From IMG/VR virus record IMGVR_UViG_3300010885_065725: a stretch of 29,091 nucleotides of DNA, one strand, 5' to 3'. The notes under the pieces are model-generated. The model searched no databases and was not told where the DNA came from. It was given only the letters and a program-made list of their open reading frames with translations. A program made the translations under genes and the position numbers. This stretch comes from a virus (taxonomy: Duplodnaviria; Heunggongvirae; Uroviricota; Caudoviricetes). Below are positions 7,352 to 29,091 of the stretch, piece after piece (position 1 is the stretch's first letter; each line of letters starts with the position of its first letter).

Positions 7352-7360
7352 ATACTATAT

Positions 7361-12113: not shown

Positions 12114-12117
12114 AATA

Positions 12118-13548: not shown

Positions 13549-13566
13549 TTTTTTATTCCCTATTTT

Positions 13567-14124: not shown

Positions 14125-14165
14125 TTTAGTATTTACCTTTTATATAAATTGTTTTTATATATTTA

Positions 14166-14471
14166 TTATATTGTCATACCAGTTATTATCCATGTAGAAG
14201 ATGATGGCAATGTTATTACAATTCCATCATTTACAGTAACAGATCCTACACTCAATGCATTACTATTTTCTGAAATGTTATGAGAAATAGTAAGGATTTT
14301 TGAACTTTCATATATAGGAATAGTAGAAGAAATATTACTTACAGTATTCAAAAGTGCAGAAACATGTGCAGTCGCAGCAATCAATTCATTATTTATTTGA
14401 ATAAAATTATTATCTACCTGAGAAATAGACAATGGAGATGCAGAATTTTGTCTAAGTGTAATATTTGCCAT
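14166..14471 (-). CDS. Small fibre-anchor-like protein (101 aa), miniature paralog of the N-terminus of 12118-13548
   Basis: TLRQNSASPLSISQVDNNF and NALSVGSVTVNDGIVITLPSSSTWII motifs. AAAGG SD upstream. Confidence 0.8.
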   Translation of the reverse strand: MANITLRQNSASPLSISQVDNNFIQINNELIAATAHVSALLNTVSNISSTIPIYESSKILTISHNISENSNALSVGSVTVNDGIVITLPSSSTWIITGMTI

Positions 14472-14511
14472 TCCGGAAACCTTTGATAATTTTTTTAATT
14501 ATATATATTTA

Positions 14512-14543
14512 TGTGGCAGATATATTTTTTTATATCTGCCACA
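14512..14543. terminator. 13-bp perfect hairpin between genes (terminator-like or RNA-stabilising)
   Basis: tgtggcagatata-tttttt-tatatctgccaca lies just after the stop of 14564-18427. There is no clear U-tract on the sense strand. Confidence 0.5.
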
Positions 14544-14563
14544 ATACATACTTTAAAAAATTA

Positions 14564-17500
14564 TTATATTGCTGCTGTTCTAGATATTTCTATTAGATTT
14601 GTTCCATTAGAAACAAACTGCATTGTATATACTTTTGCAGTAACTGTTCCAGTAACCAGAGTTGCAGTTGCTTTAAAATTTCCTCCAAATGTCAAAGTAA
14701 ATGATGCAGTTCCTAAAGTATTGACAATAAGAGTTATTATTGTTCCTGCAGGTGCGGAGTCATATGTATATGTAGTACTTGCTACAGGAGTTACTGAAAT
14801 AACATTTCTTACCGATGTAGGTAACATTTGTGAAGCATATGAAGTGCCAAAAGTTAAATTTCCTGCAGTATTTTTAAATGCGAAAAATGGTGTTGAAAAT
14901 GACGATCTTCCAAATCCCATATTAATAATTGCAGAATTCCCTTTTTGTGTACTTGGTCTAGTAATGTTATATGTAATTGTTCTAGTAATTGGTGTTAATG
15001 TGACACCAGAACCATTTATTACAGTTATTGTTACAACATTAGTTGCAGTTTCTGCAGTAAATGCAGATGGTTGAGTTATTTGGAATACTGATCCTGAACC
15101 TACACCTGCAGCTTGTGTCATACCAGTGACTACTGATGTACAAGTAAATGTATTATTTCCTGATGCAGCATAAGTACATTGAGTAGTACCTACATATGCA
15201 GTTACATTTGATGAATTCATTGAACCAATAGCAAGATACGTACTATAATATGCATTTGTTGCTGCTGCAAGTGAAGTAGATTGGCATGTTTGCATTTCAT
15301 TTGTAACAAATGCATTTGCAACTAATGTTGCTCCTTCAATTAACAATGGTATAGTTATTTGACTAACTGCAGTTTTTGCATCTCCATCAACAGTTCCGGT
15401 TACAGAACATCCAAAAGTAACAACCTGACCTTCTGTTAATGCAGAAAAATTAGATAGTAATGCATTATAATATACTCCTGTATTATCAACTGCTCCTCCA
15501 TTAATATTCCAATTAAATTGTGGAAATAACATATTTGTAGAAAGAGTTTCCCCATACTTATTTGTTTGTGTAGGAATTGATGCTCCAAGAATTATTTTAT
15601 TTGTCATATCTATATATGAAGATACTAATGCTTCTCCTACATACATATTACCATTTGTATATATACTAGAAGAGTTATCTACAAAAAGTCCAACTCTACC
15701 AATACCATCTGCAATAATAATAGTATTATTTTGAGAAGACGACCCACTTGCTCCAAATCTTAAATTAGTTTTTGGACTTACTGTATAACCACCAATATAA
15801 TTTCCTATAATAACAGAAGCATTTGTAGATGCGTATGCGACACTGACATAACCTCCTAATGATATATTATCATTCCCAGAAGTTAGTATACTATTAGCTG
15901 CCCCAATTGAAGTATTATTTATGCCAGATGTTAATGCAGAAAGACTATTAAACCCTATTGCAGTATTATTTGATGCTTTTAACATTGCTAATAAAGATTT
16001 AGCACCTATTGCAGTATTATTTGATTGTGTAAAATTATTTGCAGTCGCGGATGAAGCAGCACCTTTCATCGAACTATATCCGAGTGAGGTATTATATGAA
16101 GATACTAATGCATATTGTTGGGTTGAATGTCCAATAATAGTATTACCTTGTGTAGTAACCCCAAGGTTACTAACACGTTGACTAGAAAAATCCCCAATTG
16201 CAATAGAATAACAATTTCCATTAACTCCACCAAGAGTTAATCTTAACAAACCATTGCCAGCTCCAAGTAAACTAGTTACACCAAATATAAGACTAGTTGC
16301 TCCAGAATTCCATCCATCACCACCATAAATAAGTTTTGCATAAATAATTATTCCTCCATAAACAACAATTTCTGCTCTTGGGTAGGCTACGGTAGCAGAA
16401 GTACCTGTAGGTGCTGCTGCTACTAAATTTAATATAACACAAGGATAATATCCATCTGTATATAAAGCACCTGCAGTAGTAATAGTCAAATTAGAAAAAC
16501 TAGTACCTCCTGATAATGTAGTATTTCCAATACCAATACACGATCCGGCTGATACGCCAGTAAATCCTAATAATGCATTTATTCCTATTGCAATACACGA
16601 ACCAGAAGCATTAAGGGAATATGTACTCAGAGCATTAGCTCCTATTGCAACACAATTTGTAGAAGTTGTTATAGATTTTCCAGCCTGATATCCTATTGCA
16701 ACACAATTAGAAGCAGTAGTTGCAGAATATAATGTACTTGTTCCTATTGCAACATTATAATATGGGATACTTGCTGTTGTTCCATATAATGCATTTGTTC
16801 CTATTGCAACATTATTTCCATTATAATTAACTGGGACTATCATCGTGCCACCGTATGAACCAGTAGGATTAGTATTATATAATGCATTTGTTCCTATTGC
16901 AATATCGCTTTTTCCTGATGCATTTTGCATTGTTTTATAGCCAATTGCAATCGAATCAACAGATTCATATGAATATAATGTATTATATCCTATTGCAGTA
17001 TTATTATTTCCATTCTCTATTGAAGATAAAGAACCATTTCCTATTGCAGTATTATTTTTTCCATCTAATAGTTTATTTGAACTGTTATATCCTATTGCAG
17101 TATTATTAATACCTGTTATTATATTTGATGTACTATTATATCCTATATATGTTCCTCCAACATTAGTATCTGTAGAAATAGAAAGTTTTCCAGTTCCTGT
17201 AGAATCCTGTAATATCAATCCAGGGTATCTAGATATCGTAACAGGAACTGCACTAAATTTAAGATTTTCTACAGAATATGCAGAACTGGTGTAAATAAAA
17301 TTATTATAGCCAGTAGCAACATCATTAGCAGTGATATTAACATATACTACAAATGTCTGTAGTGTATTCGGTATTGATACATCATATCCTAAATCTATCA
17401 ACAAATGTTTTTTATCATTTATAATGAAATAACTAGTTACTGAACTATTAATTAAAGGTGCATTTGATGGTGTAATAGAGGTTACAAATAAAGTAATTTT

Positions 17501-18427
17501 ATATTTACCTGCAGAAAATGGAGCTGTATATGTTGCAATTTCTGGTGCAGTTCCTGTTACACCATCAAATGTCCATAACTGAGAACCTCCAACAGTACTG
17601 CCAGTTACATTAACAGTTTGTGGAAGAAAAGCTGCATCTGTAAATTTTTCTACACCATATACAATACTATCCTGTGTAGTATTATTTTTTAATATTAATG
17701 CACCAGAAGGATCTTTACTGGGAATATTATATAAAGATGTTCCATCTCCAATATATAATGAATTTGTGTCACTTACTCTTGCAACACCATTAAATAAGGC
17801 AGTAATGTTTGTAGATGATGCAAATGTTGAAATACCTGCTGCCTGGGCACCAAGTTTCAATTGGGCAGCAGAAATTGTCCTTTGGACAGTATCTGTTCCT
17901 GTAGTAGCAATAAGATCTGTCATTGCAGAAATATTTGCTCCTACTTGCAGAATAGTTGTTCCGTCACTACAATAGAGAACATTTCCTACTTTATATATTC
18001 CTTCTGCTGCACCAGCAGAAGGAGCAGATGCAACAGTATATACTCTATTTCTTTTAATTTTTACATTTGCAACTGCTCCTGTAAGAAATGTAGAAGCATT
18101 TGTTCCAGTAATTATTGCATCGTCTGCAAGAATAAATGTTGCATAAGAAGTGATTCCTGTCATTACAGAAGAAAGAATATAACTTCCGGAAGGAACAAAT
18201 ATTTCTATAAAATTTCCTGCATTAACAGAATTTGCTGCTGCAGCGAAACCTGATGTAGCATCAGATGCATAATTAAAAGTCTCTGAAATATAATCTTTTA
18301 CAGAAATTATGTCCCATGCCTTGCTCTGCATTGGTCTTGTCACTGCACCCTTTGCCGATCCACCCTTTGCAATCTGTGTTATTGCAGTAGAACTGATACC
18401 ATTTGTTCCGTCTATTGTTATACTCAT
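14564..18427 (-). CDS. Long tail fibre/tail spike-like protein (1287 aa)
   Basis: GAVTRPMQSKAWDIISVKDY motif typical of tailspike N-regions; many ~14-aa NTAIG/NxAIG repeats (YadA-head-like beta-roll); C-terminal TLTFGGNFK...FVSNGTNLIEISR domain. AAGG SD upstream. Confidence 0.82.
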   Translation of the reverse strand: MSITIDGTNGISSTAITQIAKGGSAKGAVTRPMQSKAWDIISVKDYISETFNYASDATSGFAAAANSVNAGNFIEIFVPSGSYILSSVMTGITSYATFILADDAIITGTNASTFLTGAVANVKIKRNRVYTVASAPSAGAAEGIYKVGNVLYCSDGTTILQVGANISAMTDLIATTGTDTVQRTISAAQLKLGAQAAGISTFASSTNITALFNGVARVSDTNSLYIGDGTSLYNIPSKDPSGALILKNNTTQDSIVYGVEKFTDAAFLPQTVNVTGSTVGGSQLWTFDGVTGTAPEIATYTAPFSAGKYKITLFVTSITPSNAPLINSSVTSYFIINDKKHLLIDLGYDVSIPNTLQTFVVYVNITANDVATGYNNFIYTSSAYSVENLKFSAVPVTISRYPGLILQDSTGTGKLSISTDTNVGGTYIGYNSTSNIITGINNTAIGYNSSNKLLDGKNNTAIGNGSLSSIENGNNNTAIGYNTLYSYESVDSIAIGYKTMQNASGKSDIAIGTNALYNTNPTGSYGGTMIVPVNYNGNNVAIGTNALYGTTASIPYYNVAIGTSTLYSATTASNCVAIGYQAGKSITTSTNCVAIGANALSTYSLNASGSCIAIGINALLGFTGVSAGSCIGIGNTTLSGGTSFSNLTITTAGALYTDGYYPCVILNLVAAAPTGTSATVAYPRAEIVVYGGIIIYAKLIYGGDGWNSGATSLIFGVTSLLGAGNGLLRLTLGGVNGNCYSIAIGDFSSQRVSNLGVTTQGNTIIGHSTQQYALVSSYNTSLGYSSMKGAASSATANNFTQSNNTAIGAKSLLAMLKASNNTAIGFNSLSALTSGINNTSIGAANSILTSGNDNISLGGYVSVAYASTNASVIIGNYIGGYTVSPKTNLRFGASGSSSQNNTIIIADGIGRVGLFVDNSSSIYTNGNMYVGEALVSSYIDMTNKIILGASIPTQTNKYGETLSTNMLFPQFNWNINGGAVDNTGVYYNALLSNFSALTEGQVVTFGCSVTGTVDGDAKTAVSQITIPLLIEGATLVANAFVTNEMQTCQSTSLAAATNAYYSTYLAIGSMNSSNVTAYVGTTQCTYAASGNNTFTCTSVVTGMTQAAGVGSGSVFQITQPSAFTAETATNVVTITVINGSGVTLTPITRTITYNITRPSTQKGNSAIINMGFGRSSFSTPFFAFKNTAGNLTFGTSYASQMLPTSVRNVISVTPVASTTYTYDSAPAGTIITLIVNTLGTASFTLTFGGNFKATATLVTGTVTAKVYTMQFVSNGTNLIEISRTAAI

Positions 18428-18523
18428 TTATATATACCTTTTTTATGATTTCTATTATTACAAAATAAATTAAACTTTTATCTTGTATTTATATTTCTTT
18501 TATATATGAAAATATATTTTTTT

Positions 18524-18584
18524 TTCTTTTGCAGAAGCTTTTTCTTTTTTCTTTTCTTTTAAAAATTCTTTTGCAGAAGCTTTT
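18524..18584. repeat. 19-bp direct repeat ttcttttgcagaagctttt (18524-18542, 18566-18584)
   Basis: Read directly in the intergenic DNA upstream of the structural operon. Confidence 0.85.
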
Positions 18585-19080
18585 AAAAATATATTGCAGT
18601 ATTCAGGAGATTTAGATTCTACCTTTAAAAGATAGAAATCTTTCTTTCTCTTCTGAATCTTCTATTAAAAAAAAATAGAAAGAAAAAGAAGAGAAATTTA
18701 TATTTGCATATAAACTATCGAAAAAGATATCCGAAGAAAACCTTTACTATTAAAAGGGAGCAGTGGTTGGGCTGTCTGCATTTACATCTGTCTACTATAT
18801 TTCCCAGCGGTAACAATATTCTATTTCGGATCATTAAAAGAATATTGCATAGGTCTTGTTTCATACCATCATATAAGATAATTATTTTATATTCTTTGCT
18901 GCCATTTCTTATTTGGGCAGCCAATTTCGAATTCCTTCCAACTTCCTGATATGCAATTGCTATATCATCTTTGGTTACGCATCCCTGCAAAAGAAATATA
19001 TTATTATCTTTTTTGCAGTGCGAAATTCTTTTTGTATTTCATATACCAGTATGGAGACGAAATAATTTATTTCAACCCTA

Positions 19081-19109
19081 TTGACAATAAGATTAATATA
19101 TAATATAAT
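19081..19109 (+). promoter_or_regulatory. sigma70-type promoter, perfect consensus
   Basis: TTGACA-17 nt-TATAAT. Confidence 0.8.
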
Positions 19110-19143
19110 ATGCTCTCTATTTACAATACAAGGAAAAAATAAA

Positions 19144-19287
19144 ATGTTTTATAATATATCAAAAAAATTAAATATAACAAACGTAAAAAAAATGACTTTC
19201 AAAGAAATTTGTATTCTTAAACTTGACTTGTTATATGTGATTATATGGTCTATACTTGTATTGTATCTGGTAATTTCACCATTATGA
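19144..19287 (+). CDS. Possible 47-aa small protein with a C-terminal hydrophobic helix
   Basis: ATG 19144 with AGGA about 10 nt upstream, directly downstream of the consensus promoter. LLYVIIWSILVLYLVISPL could span a membrane. Very AT-rich, so it may be spurious. Confidence 0.45.
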   Translation: MFYNISKKLNITNVKKMTFKEICILKLDLLYVIIWSILVLYLVISPL

Positions 19288-19317
19288 AAATTTTTAATTC
19301 TACGAGACATTTATATC

Positions 19318-19596
19318 ATGAAAAAATTCTACTTACACAACAATATAAAGACTTCTGACAACAACAACAACAATATAGCTTTATTACTCGTATCTACCAA
19401 TGAAATAGAAAATAACTTTCTTGTCAATGAACTTTCTAAACTCATGCTGATACTAGAAAAGACAGAAAAAAATCTTTCTCTTCTTTTCGAAACAAATAGA
19501 AAAGAACTCTCAAATATGTATCCTCCCTCAATACAAACAAATTTGAGAGAATCATTGACAGAAATGCAGGATTATATCCATGCGTTTTACGAATAA
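19318..19596 (+). CDS. Hypothetical protein (92 aa)
   Basis: ORF track; helical, protein-like composition; no recognisable motif. Confidence 0.6.
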   Translation: MKKFYLHNNIKTSDNNNNNIALLLVSTNEIENNFLVNELSKLMLILEKTEKNLSLLFETNRKELSNMYPPSIQTNLRESLTEMQDYIHAFYE

Positions 19597-19764
19597 TAAA
19601 TAATTGTTATATAAATACCAACCAAAAATAAATTTTTTGTTACAGGTTTTTTATATTGTAACATTTTTAATGGAAAATTCATTATGGATAGATATGTTAC
19701 AATATATTGTTGTGAATAACACAAAAACCAAAATTTTGATCTTTTTTTAGTTGATATATACCGT

Positions 19765-19804
19765 ATTTGGTGTGGTTTATATAAAAAAATAAACTACACC
19801 AAAT
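19765..19804. other. 16-bp hairpin (one G-T pair) with an A-tract loop
   Basis: atttggtgtggtttat-ataaaaaa-ataaactacaccaaat. Confidence 0.7.
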
Positions 19805-19809
19805 TTGTG

Positions 19810-19846
19810 AATAGTAGAATATATTTTTTATTCTACTATTTTTTTT
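19810..19846 (+). terminator. Putative intrinsic terminator
   Basis: aatagtagaata-7 nt-tattctactatt followed by a T run. The stem is AT-rich. Confidence 0.55.
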
Positions 19847-19873
19847 AAAAAACCAAAATAGAGAAATAAAAAA

Positions 19874-20143
19874 ATGAAACTGCAAGAAAATAAAAATATT
19901 GTCGTACAAGAAAATGTCGTCATCACTACCCTTGACCAAGACGAATTCTTCTGCGAAGATACTTCTAATCATCATCCAAAAGATCCAAAAGATCATTGTG
20001 ACTGCCCTCTTACAGACGAAAAAGTGTGGCTACAGATATATTGTGCAATCCTCGGCTCTGAAAGATGTATAGAAAATAATTCGCCTTCAGAATTTGCGGA
20101 TAAAGGTCTAGAAGCATTCAGAAGAAGATTCCATAACTGCTAG
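19874..20143 (+). CDS. Hypothetical phage protein (89 aa)
   Basis: ORF track; GAGA SD-like sequence upstream; C-terminal WLQIY...ADKGLEAFRRRF helix pattern. Confidence 0.75.
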   Translation: MKLQENKNIVVQENVVITTLDQDEFFCEDTSNHHPKDPKDHCDCPLTDEKVWLQIYCAILGSERCIENNSPSEFADKGLEAFRRRFHNC

Positions 20144-20161
20144 AAAAAAAAGAAAAAATAG

Positions 20162-20209
20162 TTGTACACAGATATTATATATGTGATATAATATACATAA
20201 TATCTGTTT
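20162..20209 (+). promoter_or_regulatory. Extended -10 promoter with the -10 box enclosed by an 11-bp inverted repeat
   Basis: TG-A-TATAAT (-10 at 20187-20192) lies between acagatattat (20168-20178) and ataatatctgt (20199-20209). The -35 is weak (TTGTAC). Confidence 0.65.
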
Positions 20210-20257
20210 CAATTAACCATTCCATTAACAACAACAACAAAAGAAATTATATATACT

Positions 20258-20362
20258 ATGAAAAATTATTATTGCGAAGATTTATCCAACGAACCAACAG
20301 AACAAGAAATTGACCTCCAAAAAATTCTTGAAATGATAGAATCAGGAATTCTACCTCTATGA
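20258..20362 (+). CDS. Small acidic hypothetical protein (34 aa)
   Basis: MKNYYCEDLSNEPTEQEIDLQKILEMIESGILPL, below the ORF-track cutoff. Its TGA overlaps the next ATG (ATGA). Confidence 0.65.
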   Translation: MKNYYCEDLSNEPTEQEIDLQKILEMIESGILPL

Positions 20363-20862
20363 ACAATGTATATCTCATCGCAGATCTCCATTTCGGACAC
20401 AAAAATGTCGCAGAATGGCGAGGATTCGATTCAATAGATTCCCATGACAATACAATAATAGAAAACTGGAACTCCAAAGTAAATAATAATGATACTATCT
20501 GGATTCTAGGTGATGTCGCAATGGGCGATGTCTCTAATATCGATAAACTGGGCGACCTCAAGGGCTATAAGAAGCTCATTCTCGGAAACCATGATACAAG
20601 ACCCTCAGAAAGATATCTGAGATACGTACAGAGAATATACGGAGCATTCCCTCTCAAAAATACTATCCTTACTCATATCCCTGTGCATCCTTCAGAATTC
20701 CCTAGATTCAAATATAATATCCATGGACATACCCATAACAATTCTATTTTCGATCCCAGATACTTCTGTGTCTCTGTAGAACAAATAAATTATTCTCCTG
20801 TCCTCTTCTCTGATGTAATAGAAATACTCGACAAAAGAAATGTACAAGAAGAAAAAGAATAA
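20359..20862 (+). CDS. Calcineurin-like metallophosphoesterase
   Basis: Complete motif set DLHFGH, LGD, GNHD, THIP, HGHTH. Confidence 0.92.
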   Translation: MNNVYLIADLHFGHKNVAEWRGFDSIDSHDNTIIENWNSKVNNNDTIWILGDVAMGDVSNIDKLGDLKGYKKLILGNHDTRPSERYLRYVQRIYGAFPLKNTILTHIPVHPSEFPRFKYNIHGHTHNNSIFDPRYFCVSVEQINYSPVLFSDVIEILDKRNVQEEKE

Positions 20863-20870
20863 TTCTCTTC

Positions 20871-20899
20871 TTGACATTCCGTATTTACAATGATATAAT
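20871..20899 (+). promoter_or_regulatory. sigma70-type promoter of ssb
   Basis: TTGACA-17 nt-TATAAT with extended -10 TG. Confidence 0.85.
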
Positions 20900-20948
20900 A
20901 GTCTCTCTCTTTCTCTCTCCATTCAAAATAAAAAAGGAAATATATACA

Positions 20949-21341
20949 ATGAGCAACATAATGACATTCACAGGAAATCTCGGAAACGATGCAGAAGTAC
21001 AAATCCTTCCTTCCGGTACTCCCGTACTGAAATTTAAAGTCGCAAACAATGTAGGATACGGAAACAAAAGAAATACTACATGGTTCAATGTCTCTCTCTA
21101 CGGAAAACTCGCAGAATCAACAAAATTTACTGACCTCATGCTAAAAGGTACAAATGTTTTCCTCTCAGGAGAATTCTCTGCAAGAACATTTACCGGAAAA
21201 GATGGATCTCAAAAATATTCTCTTGATATTACTGCAAATACCGTAGAACTAATAGGACATCATTCTACAACATCTGCTTTTGCAGCAGCACCCAAATCAG
21301 ATGCATATCAATCCGATATAGATTTCGATATCCCCTTCTAA
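20949..21341 (+). CDS. ssb: Single-stranded DNA-binding protein, bacterial type (130 aa)
   Basis: GNLGNDAE...TTWFNVSLYGK...V.LSGE OB-fold pattern and acidic DIPF C-terminal tip. Start set at ATG 20949 behind the AAGGA SD. Confidence 0.95.
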   Translation: MSNIMTFTGNLGNDAEVQILPSGTPVLKFKVANNVGYGNKRNTTWFNVSLYGKLAESTKFTDLMLKGTNVFLSGEFSARTFTGKDGSQKYSLDITANTVELIGHHSTTSAFAAAPKSDAYQSDIDFDIPF

Positions 21342-21366
21342 AAAAAACTATATTATAATTTTATAT

Positions 21367-21401
21367 AAAAACAACTGTTGCAAAATATTTGCAACAGTTG
21401 T
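21367..21401 (-). terminator. Intrinsic terminator at the convergence of the two transcription units
   Basis: 14-bp perfect stem acaactgttgcaaa-ata-tttgcaacagttgt, followed by TTTT on the minus strand. Confidence 0.7.
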
Positions 21402-21584
21402 ATATTCCCCCTCCCCCCTTCAAAAAAAAAAATTCATATTTCTCTCCTTGAAAAAAAAAATTTTGAAAAAATTTTGAAAAAAAAATTTAAAAGAGGATAT
21501 TTATTGCTAACAAAATATGCCAGCTTCCCCCCCATATATCACAAAACACTCTTTTTTTCAAGTATTATTGTGAAGTATTTTGAA

Positions 21585-21728
21585 AATATTTCTCTTGACA
21601 ATCTCTTGAGAATATGAATCGAAAATACCTTTCGAATATTTCTCTTGACTTCTGCAGAGGGTTCGTGCATTCTTTTCCTTTCCTTGCAAAACCACTCTGC
21701 AGAATATTTCTCTTGACTTCTGCAGAGG
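21585..21728. repeat. Direct repeats: 27-bp gaatatttctcttgacttctgcagagg (21634-21660, 21702-21728) plus a 15-bp partial copy at 21585
   Basis: Exact matches read directly. Confidence 0.9.
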
Positions 21729-21881
21729 ATTGTGAACAGAGGAAGATTTCCCTTTACTTTTACAAGGGAATAGAGAAGATACACAGAACAAGGACGATTG
21801 CAACAAAAATATATGCAGAGATACAAATAATAATTGGGAAGGGTTTCAAAATATTTTCCTCTTGACTTTGTTTTGAATGTG

Positions 21882-21911
21882 TGACATTGCACTCTTTAGA
21901 GTGCAATGTCA
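21882..21911. other. 30-bp near-perfect palindrome
   Basis: tgacattgcactct-tt-agagtgcaatgtca. Confidence 0.85.
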
Positions 21912-21942
21912 TTGTGAGAGAGGGATTCTCTCAAGCTGTCAT

Positions 21943-22368
21943 CTAGGCAAGGTAAACATTTTTTCCGTTTCCAGAGCATTGGTATTCGTTGAAGTAGGTC
22001 ACTAGGCAGTACGTGAGACCTTCCAAGGTGCTGTCATCGGACTCTTTCCATTCTTTTATGGCATCTGAGCAGACTTGAGGCAGGTATGGCACCATTTCTG
22101 GTTCGAAGGTGAAGCCATTGTCTGCCGCACATTTCACGGCATCCTTTTCAAGGTTTTCAAGATACTCGTTCCAGACAATCTGGGCTTCCTGTGTGGCACA
22201 AAGGCAGTAAGCAAGCTCTTCTGCAGTATATCCACCGGACATTAGCATCACAACTTTCCCTTCTTCCATACGATATTCAAAAGAAGAAATATCATAATTA
22301 GTGCTGTGGCATGATTGCATTACTGCATTAACGTCATTGTAAGAAACTTTAGAATTATATTTTGACAT
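21943..22368 (-). CDS. Acidic hypothetical protein (141 aa)
   Basis: ORF track; AAGG upstream; 22 D/E versus 9 K/R; visibly higher GC than the neighbours. Confidence 0.75.
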   Translation of the reverse strand: MSKYNSKVSYNDVNAVMQSCHSTNYDISSFEYRMEEGKVVMLMSGGYTAEELAYCLCATQEAQIVWNEYLENLEKDAVKCAADNGFTFEPEMVPYLPQVCSDAIKEWKESDDSTLEGLTYCLVTYFNEYQCSGNGKNVYLA

Positions 22369-22832
22369 GATATGTAAACCTTATAAAAAGAGAGAGAGAA
22401 AATGGTTTTTTGAATACTTCCCGAAGGAGACTATATATTATACTGTCTTCGAATGCATTGCAAGACATTTTTGCAAATATTTCGAAATATATTTTGCAGA
22501 AATATTTCTTGACATTCAGAAATTACACGAAAGATACTTCTGCAATACCATGGGCAAGGGTGCACTGCGAAAACGTCTCAGAATGCATTTTTTGATTTGT
22601 CAACAGAAATATTTCTGCAGAGTGGTTTTATATATATTATTTCTGCAGGAAATATATACAGGAAATATATACAAAATACTGCAGAAACATACAGAATATT
22701 TTTTGTTGCTATTTATATACATTTTCTGTAGGATGGTGCACTTCAATATATTTTTGAAATATATCAATAAAAGATTACTGATACAATCATTCCTGTAATA
22801 TTTACAGGAATGATAAGAACATTTTTTTTTGA

Positions 22833-23036
22833 TCACGATCTGCAGTATTTTACTTCTATATCTATTGCATTCTTTGCTGTTTCGATAGAAGAGAACTTTC
22901 TGTTTCTCATTCTTCCGCCATATACTGTGTACCCTTTAGAAGGAATCTCTACAGAATACTTTCTTCCGAGTATTTTGCTATGGTATTCGATAGAGGTAGT
23001 ATTTGTTTCTATATAATATATTTCTTTGTATTTCAT
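22833..23036 (-). CDS. Hypothetical protein (67 aa)
   Basis: Start set at ATG 23036 (MKYKEIYY), which gives an ATGA overlap with the upstream gene and an AAGGA SD. Confidence 0.7.
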   Translation of the reverse strand: MKYKEIYYIETNTTSIEYHSKILGRKYSVEIPSKGYTVYGGRMRNRKFSSIETAKNAIDIEVKYCRS

Positions 23037-23203
23037 ATTAAAGGTATTTCCTTTTTTGTGCATTCTGCGATTTTAATATATTTTCTTTTTCCGTTATCGG
23101 TCTCTATTATCAGAGCATTCTCGCATTGCTGTAATGACTCATAATATTGTTGATATGGTATGTTGCTGGAATAGAATATTATTGTGAGAACATAGAATGT
23201 CAT
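23033..23203 (-). CDS. Hypothetical protein (56 aa)
   Basis: Start set at ATG 23203 (MTFYVLTIIF); ATGA overlaps at both ends. Confidence 0.65.
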   Translation of the reverse strand: MTFYVLTIIFYSSNIPYQQYYESLQQCENALIIETDNGKRKYIKIAECTKKEIPLI

Positions 23204-23556
23204 ATTCCCCATCCAATAGATGCAACAGGAAAAGTTTCTGCAGAGAGCAGTTGTTCTGCTGTCATTCTGATAGATTTCAGGAGAGGGTTCTTGTAGTTCG
23301 GTTTCTCGCATGACTGGTAATCTAGGCAATCGATAAGTCTCAGGATGTCATTAGGATTAGTGACAGGAAGAGAATTTGAAATGTCACATTTTTTGCATCT
23401 GATCTTTTCATTGTATCTATAATTGACAGATGACACATTTATTATTTTCAGTTTATCTGCATTGATTTGTGTACCCACAGAAGAGAGATCAAGTTGGAGA
23501 GAATACCACGAAGAAATGGTAGAGATATGATTATCGGAACATATGAATGCAGACAT
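23200..23556 (-). CDS. Conserved phage hypothetical protein (118 aa)
   Basis: MSAF...HI, N.SSVNYRY and CLDYQSCE motifs recalled from a recurrent phage/plasmid family of unknown function. AAGGA SD upstream. Confidence 0.85.
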   Translation of the reverse strand: MSAFICSDNHISTISSWYSLQLDLSSVGTQINADKLKIINVSSVNYRYNEKIRCKKCDISNSLPVTNPNDILRLIDCLDYQSCEKPNYKNPLLKSIRMTAEQLLSAETFPVASIGWGI

Positions 23557-23604
23557 TTTTTTTTATCCTTTTTTATTATGTATTAGAAAGAAAGAGAGAG
23601 AATA

Positions 23605-23922
23605 TTATAATTCAATTTTTAAATCGATGTAGAGTTGTTTTATTTGTTTTTTTACCCTTGCCACGTTGCTGTAGTAATGCGAATCTTTAAAATTGATATT
23701 ACCTATGCATGTCCCGATTTTCGTGCCGTAGTGGATTGCTCTTGCTTCGCATTCTATGATATCTTTCTTTGTGTGTGCAAATACAGAAGAAGGGTTTGCT
23801 TCTATGAATATTCTTGTTGCGGAATCTATTATTCTATTTCTGTAATAGAAGGAATTATTATTTTGTATTAGGGGAGAATTCTTATTGATGGAATTGATTG
23901 CGATCTGGATGCAGGTTTTCAT
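23605..23922 (-). CDS. Hypothetical protein (105 aa)
   Basis: ORF track; AAGGA SD upstream. Confidence 0.75.
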   Translation of the reverse strand: MKTCIQIAINSINKNSPLIQNNNSFYYRNRIIDSATRIFIEANPSSVFAHTKKDIIECEARAIHYGTKIGTCIGNINFKDSHYYSNVARVKKQIKQLYIDLKIEL

Positions 23923-23951
23923 TTTTATTTCCTTTTTTTATAATTTCTTTA

Positions 23952-24022
<71 letters not shown>

Positions 24023-24025
24023 GAA

Positions 24026-24802
24026 CTATTTTGATACTACTGCGACTCGTTGTATCTGTGTCTGCATTTGTTCCTTGTATTCAGAGAATTGTTTCACTGT
24101 TCCTTTTATTTTGATCTTGTCGCCAAGTTCTGCAATGAATGCACCTTTTGATACAAGGCATGCACCAGAGTTCGATATCATGGTGATGACGTTGACCCAT
24201 CCGTAGTCGTTTGCATATCCGCCAGTACGAATGACCTGTACATCGAATACGTCTCTTTTGCCTACTGTACCGATAGTTAATGTCTTGGATGGTACAGGAA
24301 GTGCAAGGTGAGAACATTGAGCCGTCACCGCAATTTTTACGATGCTCATTGGTGTGTCTGCATCGAATTCTGTATTGATTATCCATGTAATATATGATCT
24401 TGGAAGTTCGATCAATTTTACGTTGTAGTGATATCCGAAAGGATATACACCTTTTGCGAGCATTTCTGCAATTTTTGCAAAGAATTCTATGTTTCTTGCT
24501 GTTTCTTTTTCCAGACGTTCTGCTTCTTTGCGTTCTGCTTTTGTCATTCCTTCGAGGTTTCTTTCTATTTCTCGCAGTTGTTCGTCTAATTCAGAACGGA
24601 CAGTGAGGAGAGGCATTCCAGAATTCTTTGACCAGTCGAGAGCTTTTGTAAATGCTTCGTCAGGATTGATAGAGAGGTTGATAAGATAGTAGGAAGTAAC
24701 ATCGCCCATTGAATTTCTGTAGGTTTCGCGCAATGTGAACATTGCATTTGTACGACCAGTAGAGATAATAAGATTAGGAGTGAATTCAGAAAGAGAAGGC
24801 AT
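24026..24802 (-). CDS. Phage hypothetical protein with a probable C-terminal OB-fold domain (258 aa)
   Basis: C-terminal IGTVGKR...DYGWVNVITM...GDKIKIKGTVK...QTQIQRV pattern resembles OB folds in phage proteins. Central PFGYH...LIELPRSYITWI motif. AAGGA SD upstream. Confidence 0.8.
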   Translation of the reverse strand: MPSLSEFTPNLIISTGRTNAMFTLRETYRNSMGDVTSYYLINLSINPDEAFTKALDWSKNSGMPLLTVRSELDEQLREIERNLEGMTKAERKEAERLEKETARNIEFFAKIAEMLAKGVYPFGYHYNVKLIELPRSYITWIINTEFDADTPMSIVKIAVTAQCSHLALPVPSKTLTIGTVGKRDVFDVQVIRTGGYANDYGWVNVITMISNSGACLVSKGAFIAELGDKIKIKGTVKQFSEYKEQMQTQIQRVAVVSK

Positions 24803-24836
24803 TTTTTTTATCCTTGTTGTTGCAGAAGAGAAGCAA

Positions 24837-24883
24837 AATCGCTTCGATGTGTAGTATTATACAGAAGCGATTATTGATGTCTA
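24837..24883 (-). promoter_or_regulatory. sigma70-like promoter with the -10 box enclosed by a 9-bp inverted repeat
   Basis: TAGACA-16 nt-TATAAT; arms aatcgcttc (24837-24845) and gaagcgatt (24864-24872). Confidence 0.7.
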
Positions 24884-24892
24884 CTTTTATTT

Positions 24893-25120
24893 TTATTCTT
24901 TTGATCTTCCTAGACTGCCGTTAAACATTTTTTCTGTTTCTAATTCAGAAACCGAATATATCCTCTTGTTTTTTATGAAAAATGTTCCGGAATGGGTCTC
25001 TTCGAGGTGAACATATCCGGTTTTATTGATTTCGTTCATTGCATAGAAATATCCCATAAGACAGCCAGAAAGCATTGAAATGATGATTAGAACAGATGCA
25101 AAAGTAATATTTGTTTTCAT
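24893..25120 (-). CDS. Hypothetical membrane-anchored protein (75 aa)
   Basis: N-terminal hydrophobic helix FASVLIIISMLSGCLMGYFYA. AAGG SD upstream. Confidence 0.75.
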   Translation of the reverse strand: MKTNITFASVLIIISMLSGCLMGYFYAMNEINKTGYVHLEETHSGTFFIKNKRIYSVSELETEKMFNGSLGRSKE

Positions 25121-25154
25121 TTTTTATTTGACCTTTTTTTTAATGATTGGATTA

Positions 25155-25616
25155 TTATACGATTTTAATAATGTTTTCTACTTTTACGTTGAATACATCA
25201 GAAGAAGAAGATTTATCTTTGAATTCATTTGAAAGAGCATATCTTTTTGCTGTTTCTCTGTCGATTTCTACGCCATTGATGGAATAGAGAGCCGTTGCAA
25301 TAAAGTTGCTCTTGAATGCAGAGAAACGTGCATAGAGGGTATCTTTGTTTTCGATGATGTACGGGAAAGTTACCCATTTTCCGTAGGGAAGACCTGCATT
25401 CTCTTCTGGAAGAGTTCCGTCTTCGCGTTTCTGTTGTACTGCAGACATATTATCATAATTCACTCCTACTCTGCACTGGAAGGTAGAGACCTTCACAATT
25501 TCTGGTGAACCCTTGCGAACCTTCAGAAGTCTTTCTGTGGTCACTGTGGCGATCTGACCGCCACGTTTTGCAAGAATCTTTTCGATGGTAGAGTTGGTTT
25601 TTTTCATGTTGTTCAT
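25155..25616 (-). CDS. Conserved phage hypothetical protein (153 aa)
   Basis: Start set at ATG 25616 behind AAAGG. R.GVNYDN...V..KRE.G.LP.EN.GLP.G.W..FPY.I motif recalled from a recurrent phage family. Confidence 0.85.
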   Translation of the reverse strand: MNNMKKTNSTIEKILAKRGGQIATVTTERLLKVRKGSPEIVKVSTFQCRVGVNYDNMSAVQQKREDGTLPEENAGLPYGKWVTFPYIIENKDTLYARFSAFKSNFIATALYSINGVEIDRETAKRYALSNEFKDKSSSSDVFNVKVENIIKIV

Positions 25617-25656
25617 AGTATATTTACCTTTAGTTGTTTTTTGAAGTTGATGATGT

Positions 25657-25685
25657 ATATTAAACCCTTCTGCAGAAGAACGCAA
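25657..25685 (-). promoter_or_regulatory. sigma70-like promoter with a palindrome in the spacer
   Basis: TTGCGT-17 nt-TAATAT; 12-bp palindrome cttctgcagaag at 25667-25678. Confidence 0.55.
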
Positions 25686-25688
25686 GAA

Positions 25689-25931
25689 TTATTTTAAATC
25701 TTTTTTCAGATATTTCTGTTTGAGACCTTCTGTTGTTTCTGATAATATTTGTTGTTGTTCTGGTGAAAGATCGAGAGAATACAGAAGGAATTCGAATTCT
25801 ATCAGTGAATTCGAATATTCCCATGCAATATTATTTTCTTTTGCAGTATCGAGAACTTTCATATTCGATGATGCAATAAGAGCATCGATATACTGCAGGA
25901 CAAAAGGGAATTTTTTGTATAATGCATTCAT
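25689..25931 (-). CDS. Hypothetical protein (80 aa)
   Basis: ORF track, directly downstream of a promoter. Confidence 0.7.
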   Translation of the reverse strand: MNALYKKFPFVLQYIDALIASSNMKVLDTAKENNIAWEYSNSLIEFEFLLYSLDLSPEQQQILSETTEGLKQKYLKKDLK

Positions 25932-25959
25932 TTCTATTTTTCTCGCGTTTCGAATAAGT

Positions 25960-25996
25960 GAATGGCTAATATATATTAGCCATTCTGCAATGTCAA
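25960..25996 (-). promoter_or_regulatory. sigma70-type promoter whose -10 box lies in a 26-bp perfect palindrome
   Basis: TTGACA-17 nt-TATATT; gaatggctaatatatattagccattc (25960-25985) is its own reverse complement. Confidence 0.75.
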
Positions 25997-26014
25997 CAGA
26001 TATTTTAATATAAT

Positions 26015-26314
26015 TTACAAAATTATATTAATTTTATATCCCAGAAGTTTTTCTATTTCCGGAATGGTAAGATTTACTGTAAGAGATTCTTCATACATTT
26101 TTGTATATTTCTCTACAATTTCTTCGAGATCTTTTTCTGCCTGAACTGCACGATCATATTCGTAGAATACGGAAGTATATTCATAACTATTCAAATCGTC
26201 TTCGCATCCATATTGCAATGCATCAAATATTTCACTGTTGAATTTATCAGTATTTTCATATTTGTCATATACATGCTTTGGTATTCCTACATATACTTTA
26301 TATTCGATTGTCAT
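26015..26314 (-). CDS. Hypothetical protein (99 aa)
   Basis: AAGGA SD upstream; acidic; C-terminal LTIPEIEKLLGYKINII motif common in phage proteins. Confidence 0.8.
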   Translation of the reverse strand: MTIEYKVYVGIPKHVYDKYENTDKFNSEIFDALQYGCEDDLNSYEYTSVFYEYDRAVQAEKDLEEIVEKYTKMYEESLTVNLTIPEIEKLLGYKINIIL

Positions 26315-26327
26315 TTTATTTTCCTTA

Positions 26328-26500
26328 TTATATTTTTGAAAGAATTCTTTGGTAAATATCTTTTTTGCTCATGTAATAGTCATAATTGTTTTCACCTTCA
26401 CGGAAATTATTCCACATATTATTTCTCTCGTTATTAATAATGTCTTCACAATATTGTTTACAATAAGAGTTTTTTGGCGTTCAGTGAAAGGTTTCAACAT
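26328..26500 (-). pseudogene. Frameshifted, internally deleted copy of a small conserved phage gene
   Basis: The frame from ATG 26500 gives MLKPFTERQKTLIVNNIVK then non-family sequence. A second frame gives EDIINNERNNMWNNFREGENNYDYYMSKKDIYQRILSKI* (stop 26328-26330). From memory, these match the N- and C-termini of one phage family. Confidence 0.65.
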
Positions 26501-26501
26501 T

Positions 26502-27185
26502 TTAGTTGTTCCATAATTTTAATAGTGGAAGAGAAGGTTTTTCTGCGACAGAAATCTGCAGATCGTCACCGGAATCATACATAGTTTTTTCTGATTTCGG
26601 ATAGGTGTCCACTATAGCATACTTCAATTTCGATTGCATAACTTTCTTTTGTCTTTTGTCGCCATGGAAAATAAAATACCTATGTTTAGGGAATGGTTTG
26701 ACTGTCTGTATATTATTTTCTTTTGCCCATGTCTTAGGAGAAGTGATGCCTTTTTCTCTCAACGTCATCGAATGCGTTCTTTTTCCATCTACAATATACA
26801 GGTGATCATGAGAAACAGTATTTCCTGTGTACATCCAGTTCGTTGCCTGATAGATAATCCCAGAGTGACCATATTCTGTGTCTGCATAAGAAACGACTGC
26901 ACATGGTGCCTCTAGTTGCTTTAATGCATTAGAAACAAGAAAGGATGCCGCATTTTTTGATTTAGATTGTACGACAAGTCTGCAAAGTTCGTATAATTTA
27001 AAATCTCTTTCTTGGAATGCATATTTCTGTATTGCAGGAGAAGGTTGACCGAATACACAAACACCAGTTATCATGCCGTTTTCTATCAAACCGAAACCTG
27101 CCCAGAATATTGATGCTCTTCTGGAATAATGTTTTTTTGTAACAAACTCTTCACAGATTGCCTTTGAAATTTTTATTACTTCCAT
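26502..27185 (-). CDS. mom: Mom-like (GNAT-fold) DNA adenine modification protein (227 aa)
   Basis: KHYS, GVCVFG, ELCRL, KNAASFL, VVSYAD, GHSGIIYQATNWMYTG: the signature of phage Mu Mom homologues. Start set at ATG 27185 (MEVIK), 4 nt after the upstream stop. Confidence 0.82.
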   Translation of the reverse strand: MEVIKISKAICEEFVTKKHYSRRASIFWAGFGLIENGMITGVCVFGQPSPAIQKYAFQERDFKLYELCRLVVQSKSKNAASFLVSNALKQLEAPCAVVSYADTEYGHSGIIYQATNWMYTGNTVSHDHLYIVDGKRTHSMTLREKGITSPKTWAKENNIQTVKPFPKHRYFIFHGDKRQKKVMQSKLKYAIVDTYPKSEKTMYDSGDDLQISVAEKPSLPLLKLWNN

Positions 27186-27189
27186 TTTT

Positions 27190-27459
27190 TTATCCTCCGC
27201 CTTGGTGCTCTGTGGGAAGATCATTCGGATTCCTTGCGATACTTCCACACCATTCTGCGCCATCATAGCACAGTGGAAAGTAAACGAAGTTCTCTGTCCA
27301 TAATGTAAATGGTTTTCCTTCTGTACCACCAAAACCATCATCAAATTCTTCTATTAATTCTGCATGATTAGAAAATGTAGAAATGTAACGCACATTGTCG
27401 TCTTCATTGTTACTTTTCATTTCGTCTTTAATTAATTTGTACCAAGTCGTTTTTGACAT
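27190..27459 (-). CDS. Conserved phage hypothetical protein (89 aa)
   Basis: FDDGFGGTEGKPFTLWT...VYFPLCYDGAEW...RNP...HQGGG motif recalled from a recurrent phage family. Confidence 0.85.
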   Translation of the reverse strand: MSKTTWYKLIKDEMKSNNEDDNVRYISTFSNHAELIEEFDDGFGGTEGKPFTLWTENFVYFPLCYDGAEWCGSIARNPNDLPTEHQGGG

Positions 27460-27463
27460 ACTA

Positions 27464-27694
27464 TTATCCTCTGTAGACTGTTACGTTATTTCCAACAATA
27501 TAATAATGGTTTCCATCGAATGAAATAAGATAACTCAATGCATCAGTTTTATTACCTTCATCATCCCATGTATAATTTCTTATTACAGCATCTTTTACTG
27601 TATTGATGATTGATGTTGTACCACCAAAATCATATTCTACCAGTACACCAACAACAGAATTAGGGTCTTTTTGCATCATTTCTAGTACATTCAT
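27464..27694 (-). CDS. Hypothetical protein (76 aa)
   Basis: Start set at ATG 27694 (MNVLEMMQK) behind GAGA. Confidence 0.7.
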   Translation of the reverse strand: MNVLEMMQKDPNSVVGVLVEYDFGGTTSIINTVKDAVIRNYTWDDEGNKTDALSYLISFDGNHYYIVGNNVTVYRG

Positions 27695-27727
27695 AATAAA
27701 TTCTCTTTTTTGTATTTTGTAGTGCAC

Positions 27728-27761
27728 ATTGTATACCCTAATGGATATTAAAGTATACAAT
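27728..27761 (-). promoter_or_regulatory. 9-bp inverted repeat at a promoter-like position
   Basis: attgtatac-16 nt-gtatacaat, with TACAAT in the downstream arm. No convincing -35 at canonical spacing. Confidence 0.45.
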
Positions 27762-27776
27762 TATTTTTTTTTTATT

Positions 27777-28490
27777 TTAAACTTGAGTGTGCACTACGAA
27801 ACCGGAAGTATCTTTTTTTGCTCTTCCTTTTGCATACAATCCAACAATATTGTTTTTTGGGTCTAAGAATCTTAAATCGCTTTCGTCACCGTTAAAAACA
27901 GGCATATCGATGTAAGATGCAGGTAATTCTTTTGTTGCAAATACTACTGCGACATTAAGACCTTCTGCAATTGCTTTTTCTACGTCTGCATCATTTCCAT
28001 CTGCCTTGCTGAAGGTCAAATGATAATTAGAAATGTTTGCAACTTTACGATTCAATACTTTTGTGTAATCATAAAATTGTATTCCTGGAAACATTTCAAA
28101 AATTGTTTTTCCATCTATTTTATATTTTTCCCAAGAAATATCTGAAGTGCCGTTTAATCTGAATACAGGAATCAGTCCAAGTTTCGATGCCTGTTTGATT
28201 GATTTGGTAATGTCGTCTACCAATACCTTCAAAAAGTCTTCGCGGTCATTGATGAACATCAGAGTTTTGCGAATTCTGGCTTGTTGAATCACATTAGTGA
28301 TTTCACCTGTCTTAAACATACCACCACGACCTGCAGTATTCAGGCATGCGGCAATGCATCCTGCTGTCGCTTTTGGGCACACATTGTGACCACTTACATT
28401 GCTGGGTGCAAGATGCAGAATATACGTCATATATCCTTGTTTGGTGCCTTTTAAAGTTTTTGGATTTCCAGTAGAAAGTAATTTAGCCAT
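27777..28490 (-). CDS. GP88-family protein of unknown function (Cys-triad, possibly radical-SAM-like)
   Basis: CPKATAGCIAACLNTAGRG, RLNGTSDISWE, FYDYTK, NYHLTFS, NVAVVF, GDESDLRFLD, VGLYAKG. GAGG SD upstream. Confidence 0.8.
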   Translation of the reverse strand: MAKLLSTGNPKTLKGTKQGYMTYILHLAPSNVSGHNVCPKATAGCIAACLNTAGRGGMFKTGEITNVIQQARIRKTLMFINDREDFLKVLVDDITKSIKQASKLGLIPVFRLNGTSDISWEKYKIDGKTIFEMFPGIQFYDYTKVLNRKVANISNYHLTFSKADGNDADVEKAIAEGLNVAVVFATKELPASYIDMPVFNGDESDLRFLDPKNNIVGLYAKGRAKKDTSGFVVHTQV

Positions 28491-28537
28491 TTTTTGTTGC
28501 CTCTGTGTATGTTTGTTGTTTAAGTGATGTTGTAGCC

Positions 28538-28566
28538 ATTATATTGCACTTCCTTGTGCATATCTA
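28538..28566 (-). promoter_or_regulatory. sigma70-like promoter of the GP88-family gene
   Basis: TAGATA-17 nt-TATAAT; spacer contains tgcac-6 nt-gtgca. Confidence 0.7.
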
Positions 28567-28569
28567 CAA

Positions 28570-28830
28570 TTAAATTTCGTATGTTGTAAATGGTATGCCT
28601 GTCTTCTTTAAATCCTTTATTACACGCAACAAATACTTGTATTTGCGCATTGCTTCAGTTCTTGAAATTTCACCGTCACAGTGCAGGTTTTCTGAACTGG
28701 CTTTGCAGTCGATAGATTCAGCAATTTCTTTTACATCAGATTCAGAAAGGTTGTTGATATCATATAAAGAACCACCAAATAATTGACTCATGCTATTGTT
28801 GCAATCTATATATTCTTTTAATGCTTTCAT
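28570..28830 (-). CDS. Conserved phage hypothetical protein (86 aa)
   Basis: S.ENLHCDGEIS motif (SPENLxCDGE family) recalled from aquatic phages. Confidence 0.85.
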   Translation of the reverse strand: MKALKEYIDCNNSMSQLFGGSLYDINNLSESDVKEIAESIDCKASSENLHCDGEISRTEAMRKYKYLLRVIKDLKKTGIPFTTYEI

Positions 28831-28879
28831 AGTGTCTTCTCTTTTTGTTGAAGTGGATGTTGTTTTTTAATGTTGTGCT

Positions 28880-28909
28880 ATTGTAATTGAAATATTTTGA
28901 AGCTGTCAA
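28880..28909 (-). promoter_or_regulatory. sigma70-type promoter, leftward
   Basis: TTGACA-18 nt-TACAAT. Confidence 0.65.
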
Positions 28910-28933
28910 CAAAAAAATATAATTTATTTTTGT

Positions 28934-28962
28934 TTGACTAAACATAAAAATTAAAATATTAT
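28934..28962 (+). promoter_or_regulatory. sigma70-type promoter, rightward
   Basis: TTGACT-17 nt-TATTAT. Confidence 0.65.
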
Positions 28963-28994
28963 ATGCTACATCAACTTTCAAGTGGGCAAACATC

Positions 28995-29091
28995 ATGGAA
29001 ACATTAAAATATAGTTACAATGTAGAAATAACCTTTAGAGGTAAGAATCCTTCTGTATCTATAACCGAAATTTTTGCATACAATAAAGATG
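28995..29091 (+). CDS. Hypothetical protein (partial, runs off the right edge)
   Basis: METLKYSYNVEITFRGKNPSVSITEIFAYNKD... is open to the window end, downstream of the rightward promoter. Confidence 0.55.
   Translation, partial: METLKYSYNVEITFRGKNPSVSITEIFAYNKD

Follow-up and report, generated by a model that had tools for sequence, protein, structure and literature searches.

The window analysed here, a stretch of 29,091 nucleotides from an uncultured tailed phage (IMG/VR virus record IMGVR_UViG_3300010885_065725), contains five inverted repeats, referred to as cases 1 to 5 (Table 1), in short gaps between small genes. With a probability of about 0.7, these repeats are early-promoter/stem-loop elements of the promoter-early stem-loop (PeSL) type, acting most likely in RNA that is read through from the upstream gene. 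The PeSL was described for the T4-type phages RB49 and phi1 as a strong sigma70-like promoter combined with a stem-loop, both located in the gap that follows a small early gene (Arbiol et al. 2010, PMC2839356), so the promoter/stem-loop architecture itself has been in the literature since 2010. An initial annotation of the region had proposed DNA hairpins on the -10 boxes, in analogy to the hairpin promoters of coliphage N4, which would serve as a switch for the promoters. Most likely, the repeats can be accounted for in the absence of a cruciform switch in the DNA.

All five inverted repeats were found at the sites given by the initial annotation, but for case 1, the end of the second arm is at position 20207 and not at 20209, a shift of 2 nt. 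Their arms are AT-rich with a length of 9-13 bp. Case 1 extends to an imperfect palindrome of 40 bp, and each arm of case 2 contains a CTGCAG palindrome. The arms had been described as sharing no sequence; this was confirmed for cases 1, 3, 4 and 5, the arms of which are unrelated, but not for case 2, since its arms recur in a further inverted repeat around a half promoter with only a -35 box. From its sequence, the latter repeat looks like a degraded cassette. The initial annotation had proposed, among other checks, a comparison of the inverted repeats around predicted -10 boxes to shuffled controls, and the intergenic repeats as such clearly exceeded the expectation. Between the genes, 15 perfect inverted repeats with arms of at least 9 bp were counted, as compared to 1.46 +/- 1.15 in dinucleotide shuffles, a tenfold excess; for arms of at least 11 bp, eight were observed versus 0.13 in the shuffles. 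When arms of at least 9 bp and loops of up to 24 nt were counted, perfect repeats occurred at 4.6 per kb in intergenic and at 0.39 per kb in coding DNA, being 12-fold denser between the genes. The folding z-scores of the five intergenic regions as RNA were -4.75, -4.09, -3.43, -4.25 and -3.76 for cases 1 to 5, and with the promoter hexamers fixed and the remainder shuffled, each of the five repeats was obtained with p <= 0.01. The five inverted repeats are real, non-random and selected.

Promoters were predicted from the sequence of the region 18400-29091 with a simple position-weight scan and a consensus scan. The claim that the -10 box sits in the inverted repeat was borne out, together with a credible sigma70-type promoter, for cases 1, 3 and 4, but a usable -35 box is missing from cases 2 and 5; for case 2, a (TC)n tract is present upstream on the sense strand where the -35 box would be expected, and no credible -35 box was identified. 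In case 3, one arm is located in the promoter spacer and the other at about +8 to +16. A sigma70-like promoter together with a Shine-Dalgarno sequence and a start codon was predicted in cases 1, 3 and 4, and the same holds for the sites at 19081, 20871, 26355, 28566, 28909 and 28934. Of the five strongest promoters of the region, only that of case 4 carries an inverted repeat on its -10 box, while the other four, with -35 hexamers starting at 19081, 20871, 28909 and 28934, do not. The promoters which open a transcription block (19081, 28909 and 28934) contain no embedded repeat, in comparison to five of ten internal promoters, these being small numbers. Other promoters were found to have a palindrome on the -35 box or within the spacer, namely at 22444-22467 and at the two 12-bp sites listed in Table 1. 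From the lengths of hairpins and gaps, it was calculated by our own arithmetic that a hairpin of 26-40 nt placed at random in a gap of 83-114 nt covers the -10 box at about 0.36-0.56 per site, and the three overlaps with a -10 box therefore carry no weight on their own. The link between the repeats and the -10 boxes is weaker than the reality of the repeats themselves.

Table 1. Inverted repeats, promoters and related features of the window.
Feature	Coordinates	Strand	Description
Case 1 inverted repeat	20168..20207	+	11-bp arms 20168-20178 / 20197-20207; 18-nt loop contains the -10 box
Case 1 promoter	20162..20192	+	TTGTAC-19-TGaTATAAT; extended -10 box at 20184-20192; A-rich stretch upstream
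Case 2 inverted repeat	23952..23991	-	12-bp arms 23952-23963 / 23980-23991; 16-nt loop contains TATAAT (23975..23970)
Case 3 inverted repeat	24837..24872	-	9-bp arms 24837-24845 / 24864-24872; 18-nt loop contains the -10 box
Case 3 promoter	24856..24883	-	TAGACA-16-TATAAT; orthologous to promoters of contigs L001 and L026
5' untranslated region hairpin of case 3	24830..24845	-	GAAGCG-AUUU-UGCUUC; one arm is the 3' arm of case 3; also conserved in contigs L001 and L026
Case 4 inverted repeat	25960..25985	-	Perfect 26-bp palindrome; 11-bp stem, 4-nt loop; -10 box across loop and 3' arm
Case 4 promoter	25968..25996	-	TTGACA-17-TATATT
Hairpin near case 4	26005..26031	-	All A/T, 12 bp; covers the upstream stop codon, just before the case 4 -35 box
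Case 5 inverted repeat	27728..27761	-	9-bp perfect arms 27728-27736 / 27753-27761; no credible promoter
Inverted repeat with case 2 arms	21695..21727	+	CTCTGCAGAA / TTCTGCAGAG arms around a half promoter with -35 box only (TATTTCTCTTGAC)
Palindrome AAAGAATTCTTT	26339..26350	-	12 bp, in the spacer of promoter TTACCA-17-TATAAT (26355..26327)
Palindrome CTTCTGCAGAAG	25667..25678	-	12 bp, within the spacer of a weak promoter, TTGCGT-17-TAATAT
Comparison hairpin	19765..19804	+	No credible promoter; best candidate TTGGTG-17-TAAACT scores 7.9
Clear intrinsic terminator	19810..19848	+	12-bp stem, then T run

It had been argued that an RNA hairpin cannot account for the repeats, with one of the arms being located upstream of the transcription start. 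This argument fails. Each inverted repeat is preceded by a gene on the same strand and begins 15-34 nt past its stop codon (24 nt for case 1 and 15 nt for case 5), so that transcripts reading through from the upstream gene include both arms; the objection holds only for the transcript from the local promoter. The block-opening promoters receive no read-through and contain no inverted repeat, a direction that fits a role in RNA. The direct evidence for RNA is thin, and two observations count in its favour. First, the repeat of case 5 is extended to 15 pairs, including two G-U pairs, on the sense RNA only, by which six pairs are gained; the additional pairs correspond to A-C mismatches on the other strand, which speaks against a structure formed in DNA. 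Second, neighbouring hairpins covary. Contig L024, the only close relative, is 97.4% identical to the window and covers 19564-25759, with cases 4 and 5 lying outside. Compared to this contig, the hairpin at 19765-19804 contains two compensatory changes and one change from G-T to G-C on the sense strand, and the hairpin at 21882-21911 contains one compensatory change. By this comparison, the two stems are under selection.

For the mode of action, the following may be proposed. A short gap holds the end signal of the upstream message as well as the sigma70 promoter, the leader and the ribosome binding site of the next gene, and since both signals must fit into one gap, they are written on top of each other. 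In transcripts entering from the upstream gene, the inverted repeat would fold as an RNA stem-loop, which might attenuate or end these transcripts or shield the 3' end. The two promoter hexamers (-35 and -10) would work in the double-stranded DNA, in the manner of any host-type promoter. For case 3, the 3' arm can pair either with the arm in the spacer, which is present in read-through RNA only, or with the downstream UGCUUC, giving the hairpin of the 5' untranslated region (24830-24872, minus strand). By this alternative pairing, read-through and locally started messages would fold differently.

The stem-loops of the PeSLs in RB49 and phi1 are located between the -35 box and the -10 box, over either of them or just outside, most commonly between the boxes or over the -10 box, and have been interpreted as terminators or attenuators of upstream transcripts; one of them was shown to cut the expression of a lacZ reporter like rrnB T1 (PMC2839356). 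PeSLs were also identified in the pairs PST/T4 and nt-1/KVP40 (Comeau et al. 2014, PMC4122927), and those of PST/T4 have variable stem sequences and include degraded cassettes with only a -35 box (PMC4122927). The gaps of the window resemble this design in several respects. In cases 1, 3 and 4, a predicted promoter, a stem-loop, a Shine-Dalgarno sequence and a start codon are crammed into the short stretch behind a small early gene, the genes being small, mostly uncharacterised and co-directional and part of a variable region in which genes are shuffled. The stem-loop is located in the promoter spacer or over the -10 box, no U tract follows, and degraded copies with only a -35 box are found nearby. 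When gaps of phi1 were inspected, several were found to contain stems of 7-8 bp with a loop of 4-6 nt and a 3' arm carrying the -10 box, the geometry present in case 4, and others were found with the stem-loop in the spacer; a U run was present in none of them. However, differences were also noted. The arms in phi1 are 7-8 bp long, G/C-rich and alike, whereas those in the window are longer, AT-rich and mutually unrelated, and three of the five repeats have loops of 16-18 nt which enclose the whole -10 box. With unrelated AT-rich arms and three long loops, the elements may be called a sequence-diverse variant of the PeSL design, rather than its repeated, recombining form.

Only the hexamers, a 15-nt word consisting of the -35 box plus upstream sequence (21585-21868) and the arms of case 2 recur among the cassettes of the window. 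Five to six copies of this word (AATATTTCTCTTGAC and variants) are present without a -10 box at 21585-21868 and 22501-22520, and two copies of the AATATTTCTCTTGAC-type word lie within a repeat of 30 nt that has TCTGCAGA arms on its flanks. The copies without a -10 box appear to match the degraded PeSLs with only a -35 box which were described by Comeau et al. 2014.

Related contigs contain the same architecture. The 258-amino acid protein encoded at 24026-24802 has relatives at 55-58% identity, and the alignment identified orthologues of the case 3 promoter in contigs L001 and L026, with TTGACA there in place of TAGACA in the window. The -35 hexamer, the sequence CTTCTG-TATAAT and the hairpin in the 5' untranslated region are conserved in all three. 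The inverted repeat around the -10 box is perfect only in the lineage of the window: Watson-Crick pairing is kept for four of its nine pairs in L001 and for six in L026, each with one additional G-T wobble. The repeat around the -10 box is therefore not needed for the persistence of the promoter. The conserved gene and its promoter have other gene neighbours in L001 than in the window, as would be anticipated for a hyperplastic region. In both L001 and L026, TTGACA-agga-TGTCAA was identified, where the -35 box itself forms one arm, and contig L001 also contains an 8-bp inverted repeat with a 13-nt loop containing TATAAT and followed by a T run, which has the geometry of cases 1-3 with other arms. 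Contig L025 contains five near-identical cassettes, TTGAC(A/T)..TAGTCCA-loop-TGGACTA running into TATAAT, in which a stem-loop of 6-9 bp occupies the spacer. The claim that a recurrent geometry, and not a sequence, couples host-type promoters with stem-loops was thus supported, since it is also found in the relatives and in phi1 with other arms.

A number of observations weigh against the assignment of the repeats to PeSL-type elements acting in RNA. The repeats share the position soon after a stop codon with intrinsic terminators, and clear terminators of this phage were identified at 21371-21401 and 21882-21911 in addition to the one in Table 1; however, none of the five repeats was listed by the consensus scan for terminators, none has a G+C-rich stem with a U run behind it, and a reading as intrinsic terminators was rejected. 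U tracts are absent at the five repeats except for a weak one after case 3, and termination is poorly served by loops as long as 16-18 nt. The asymmetry between G-U pairs and A-C mismatches did not favour the sense strand overall, neither in the window nor in phi1: the mismatch counts were 1 versus 4 here and 3 versus 2 in phi1, and the summed difference of sense minus antisense folding energy is about zero. Cases 1 and 3 are unchanged in L024 and case 2 differs only by a 2-nt deletion at its edge, and with no informative change in cases 1-3, covariation provides no evidence for the promoter-embedded repeats. Given the unconserved repeat of case 3, some of the repeats may be young or functionless. 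The copies in RB49 and phi1 are alike over about 100 bp, but the gaps of the window are not near-identical and would thus be poor substrates for a recombination from PeSL to PeSL as in these phages. As to the T4-type identity of the phage, no T4 core genes were found among the window proteins searched.

It has been proposed that PeSLs serve as recombination sites (PMC2839356, PMC4122927), and many of the repeats might have little function of their own and represent by-products, either of recombination and slippage at promoter cassettes in a rapidly changing region or of the AT-rich, near-palindromic sequence of the -10 box. The lineage-specific perfection of the case 3 repeat is consistent with such an origin, as are the arms of case 2, which recur around a different loop at 21695-21727 as if the arms had been exchanged. 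Two hairpins of contig L025 (1259-1290 and 1562-1593) are identical except for the 4-nt loop, which is reverse-complemented (tcct versus agga); a flip of this kind could be produced by recombination between hairpin arms. However, without selection, neither the tenfold excess over shuffled sequences nor stems of such length and perfection would easily arise, the neighbouring hairpins show compensatory change within a divergence of only 2.6%, and the same architecture is present in distant T4-type phages. An origin as mere by-products is considered unlikely.

The proposal of a switch at the DNA level implied that the repeats are extruded as cruciforms under negative supercoiling, thereby exposing or hiding the -10 box and tuning sigma70 promoters, perhaps with the aid of a single-stranded DNA-binding protein (SSB) of the host or the phage. 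The SSB gene reported by the initial annotation is indeed present (20949-21341, plus strand; bacterial type, PF00436, E 8e-18). As DNA, both strands can fold (-6 to -12 kcal/mol, z -2.2 to -5.8), and the perfect stems of cases 1-4 favour neither strand. The loops are AT-rich, which is said to favour extrusion (review PMC3176155). It was shown that the P1 hairpin of N4, when placed between the -35 box and the -10 box of rrnB P1, abolished this promoter in dependence on gyrase and that novobiocin restored it (PMC4496689), an engineered precedent by which such an effect is physically possible, and cruciforms are never mentioned in the 2010 PeSL paper (PMC2839356). However, four of the five best promoters, including the block-opening ones, have no inverted repeat on the -10 box, and the orthologous case 3 promoter keeps the same or a better -35 box and the same -10 box with the repeat degraded. 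Three of the five repeats have 16-18 nt between their perfect arms, a distance which strongly disfavours cruciform extrusion. An overlap with the -10 box is expected by chance in gaps of this size, and nothing in the analysis points to extrusion or to a dependence on SSB. A DNA switch is thus regarded as improbable. A similarly low likelihood is assigned to the combined case that PeSL stem-loops whose centre is short or AT-rich and falls on the -10 box, above all case 4, could also extrude under negative supercoiling; if this were true, early promoters would respond to DNA topology or to SSB in the course of the infection. For comparison, the exsA promoter of Vibrio parahaemolyticus is reported to be regulated by a cruciform and attenuated by HlyU (PMC10325908). 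As in the proposal for the window, an inverted repeat in a promoter is suggested there to act as a DNA structure, but the exsA system involves experimental probing and a dedicated regulator, and nothing comparable is indicated here.

The palindromes could also be operators for dimeric DNA-binding regulators which shut off early genes. Perfect palindromes lie on or inside promoters in case 4 and at AAAGAATTCTTT (26339-26350) and CTTCTGCAGAAG (25667-25678), and 16 copies of TGCAGAA, counted in both orientations, are present in the 3.4 kb of non-coding DNA. However, most TGCAGAA copies are found in one repeated cassette (21634-21731) and in the non-coding stretch 22369-22832, arms separated by 16-18 nt are unlike a single operator, and no common word is present in the arms of cases 1, 3, 4 and 5, so that each operator would need its own regulator. 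A reading as operators was rejected and is considered very improbable.

The hairpin promoters of N4 have stems of 5-7 bp and loops of 3 nt, with the centre at -11, and are marked by a GC-rich heptamer that is conserved and by fixed bases (purine at -11, G at -10, G at -8 and C at +1), and are recognised by the injected virion single-subunit RNA polymerase (PMC4496689). The repeats of the window resemble them in being located at about -10 of early phage promoters, and supercoiling and SSB are involved in the N4 system. The analogy drawn by the initial annotation nevertheless fails for each defining feature open to test (stem, loop and conserved bases): the sites described here have sigma70 hexamers, stems of 9-13 bp, AT-rich loops of 4-18 nt and nothing conserved between the sites, and an N4-type reading was rejected. 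No match to an RNA polymerase was found among the window proteins searched.

The window has a G+C content of 33%, and no near-identical phage was identified in the INPHARED collection of deposited phages. Large minus-strand genes for fibre and structural proteins are located at 1-18427. They are followed by small plus-strand genes at 19144-21341, the last of which code for a phosphoesterase and then for SSB, and by a run of small minus-strand genes at 21943-28830, which includes a Mom-like gene and most products of which have no match of known function. The gaps in the co-directional run of small genes are 50-115 nt long. A 13-bp hairpin followed by CATAAATAT was observed between two structural genes (14512-14543, minus strand), and a perfect TATAAATA is present at 18486-18493 on the minus strand, 66 nt before the gene of a 1287-amino acid structural protein. 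Judged by their motifs, both CATAAATAT and TATAAATA would fit T4-type late promoters. The contig L001 of a relative (54 kb) encodes gp32- and gp25-like proteins, which, like the TATAAATA of the window, is a weak hint consistent with a T4-type phage; a Gp23 family search on this contig gave no match, the contig being only about 34% complete and the controls equally silent. The bacterial-type SSB of the window is located in the variable region, and the related contig G001 encodes a gp32-type protein. Scans of 18400-29091 with Rfam and for tRNAs revealed nothing real.

Several further sequence features were noted. CTGCAG occurs 46 times in the window, as compared to about 2.4 expected copies. An interpretation of this excess as a DNA signal in coding DNA was rejected, since 34 of the 37 genic copies are in one frame (NCT-GCA-G); the genic excess is a codon-pair effect of the usage of GCA, TCT and ACT, and the nine intergenic copies belong to repeated arms. 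Pyrimidine (CT)n tracts on the sense strand are present in leaders or just past stop codons (20903-20919, 22388-22400, 23589-23603 and 23990-24022), and their length varies in comparison to L024. Judged by their composition, these tracts might serve in translation or in the binding of S1, but they might also be microsatellites prone to slippage or DNA prone to form triplexes. Moreover, a 464-nt gap may give rise to a non-coding plus-strand transcript (candidate at 22509-22830). Its predicted promoter, TTGACA-18-GATACT, copies the -35 box and spacer of the SSB promoter, and its end (22786-22830) is formed by a hairpin of 13 bp and nine consecutive Ts behind it. A 2-nt indel in L024 within this segment argues against coding, and no match for the candidate was found in Rfam.

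The assignment to PeSL-type elements adds an uncultured, AT-rich phage to the set of phages which pack a promoter and a stem-loop into one element. The design persists although the stems share no sequence, which would make a regulatory role separable from the proposed role as a recombination site. PeSL stem-loops lack U tracts, and the sequence-diverse versions with long loops may be useful as test cases for the role of these stem-loops.

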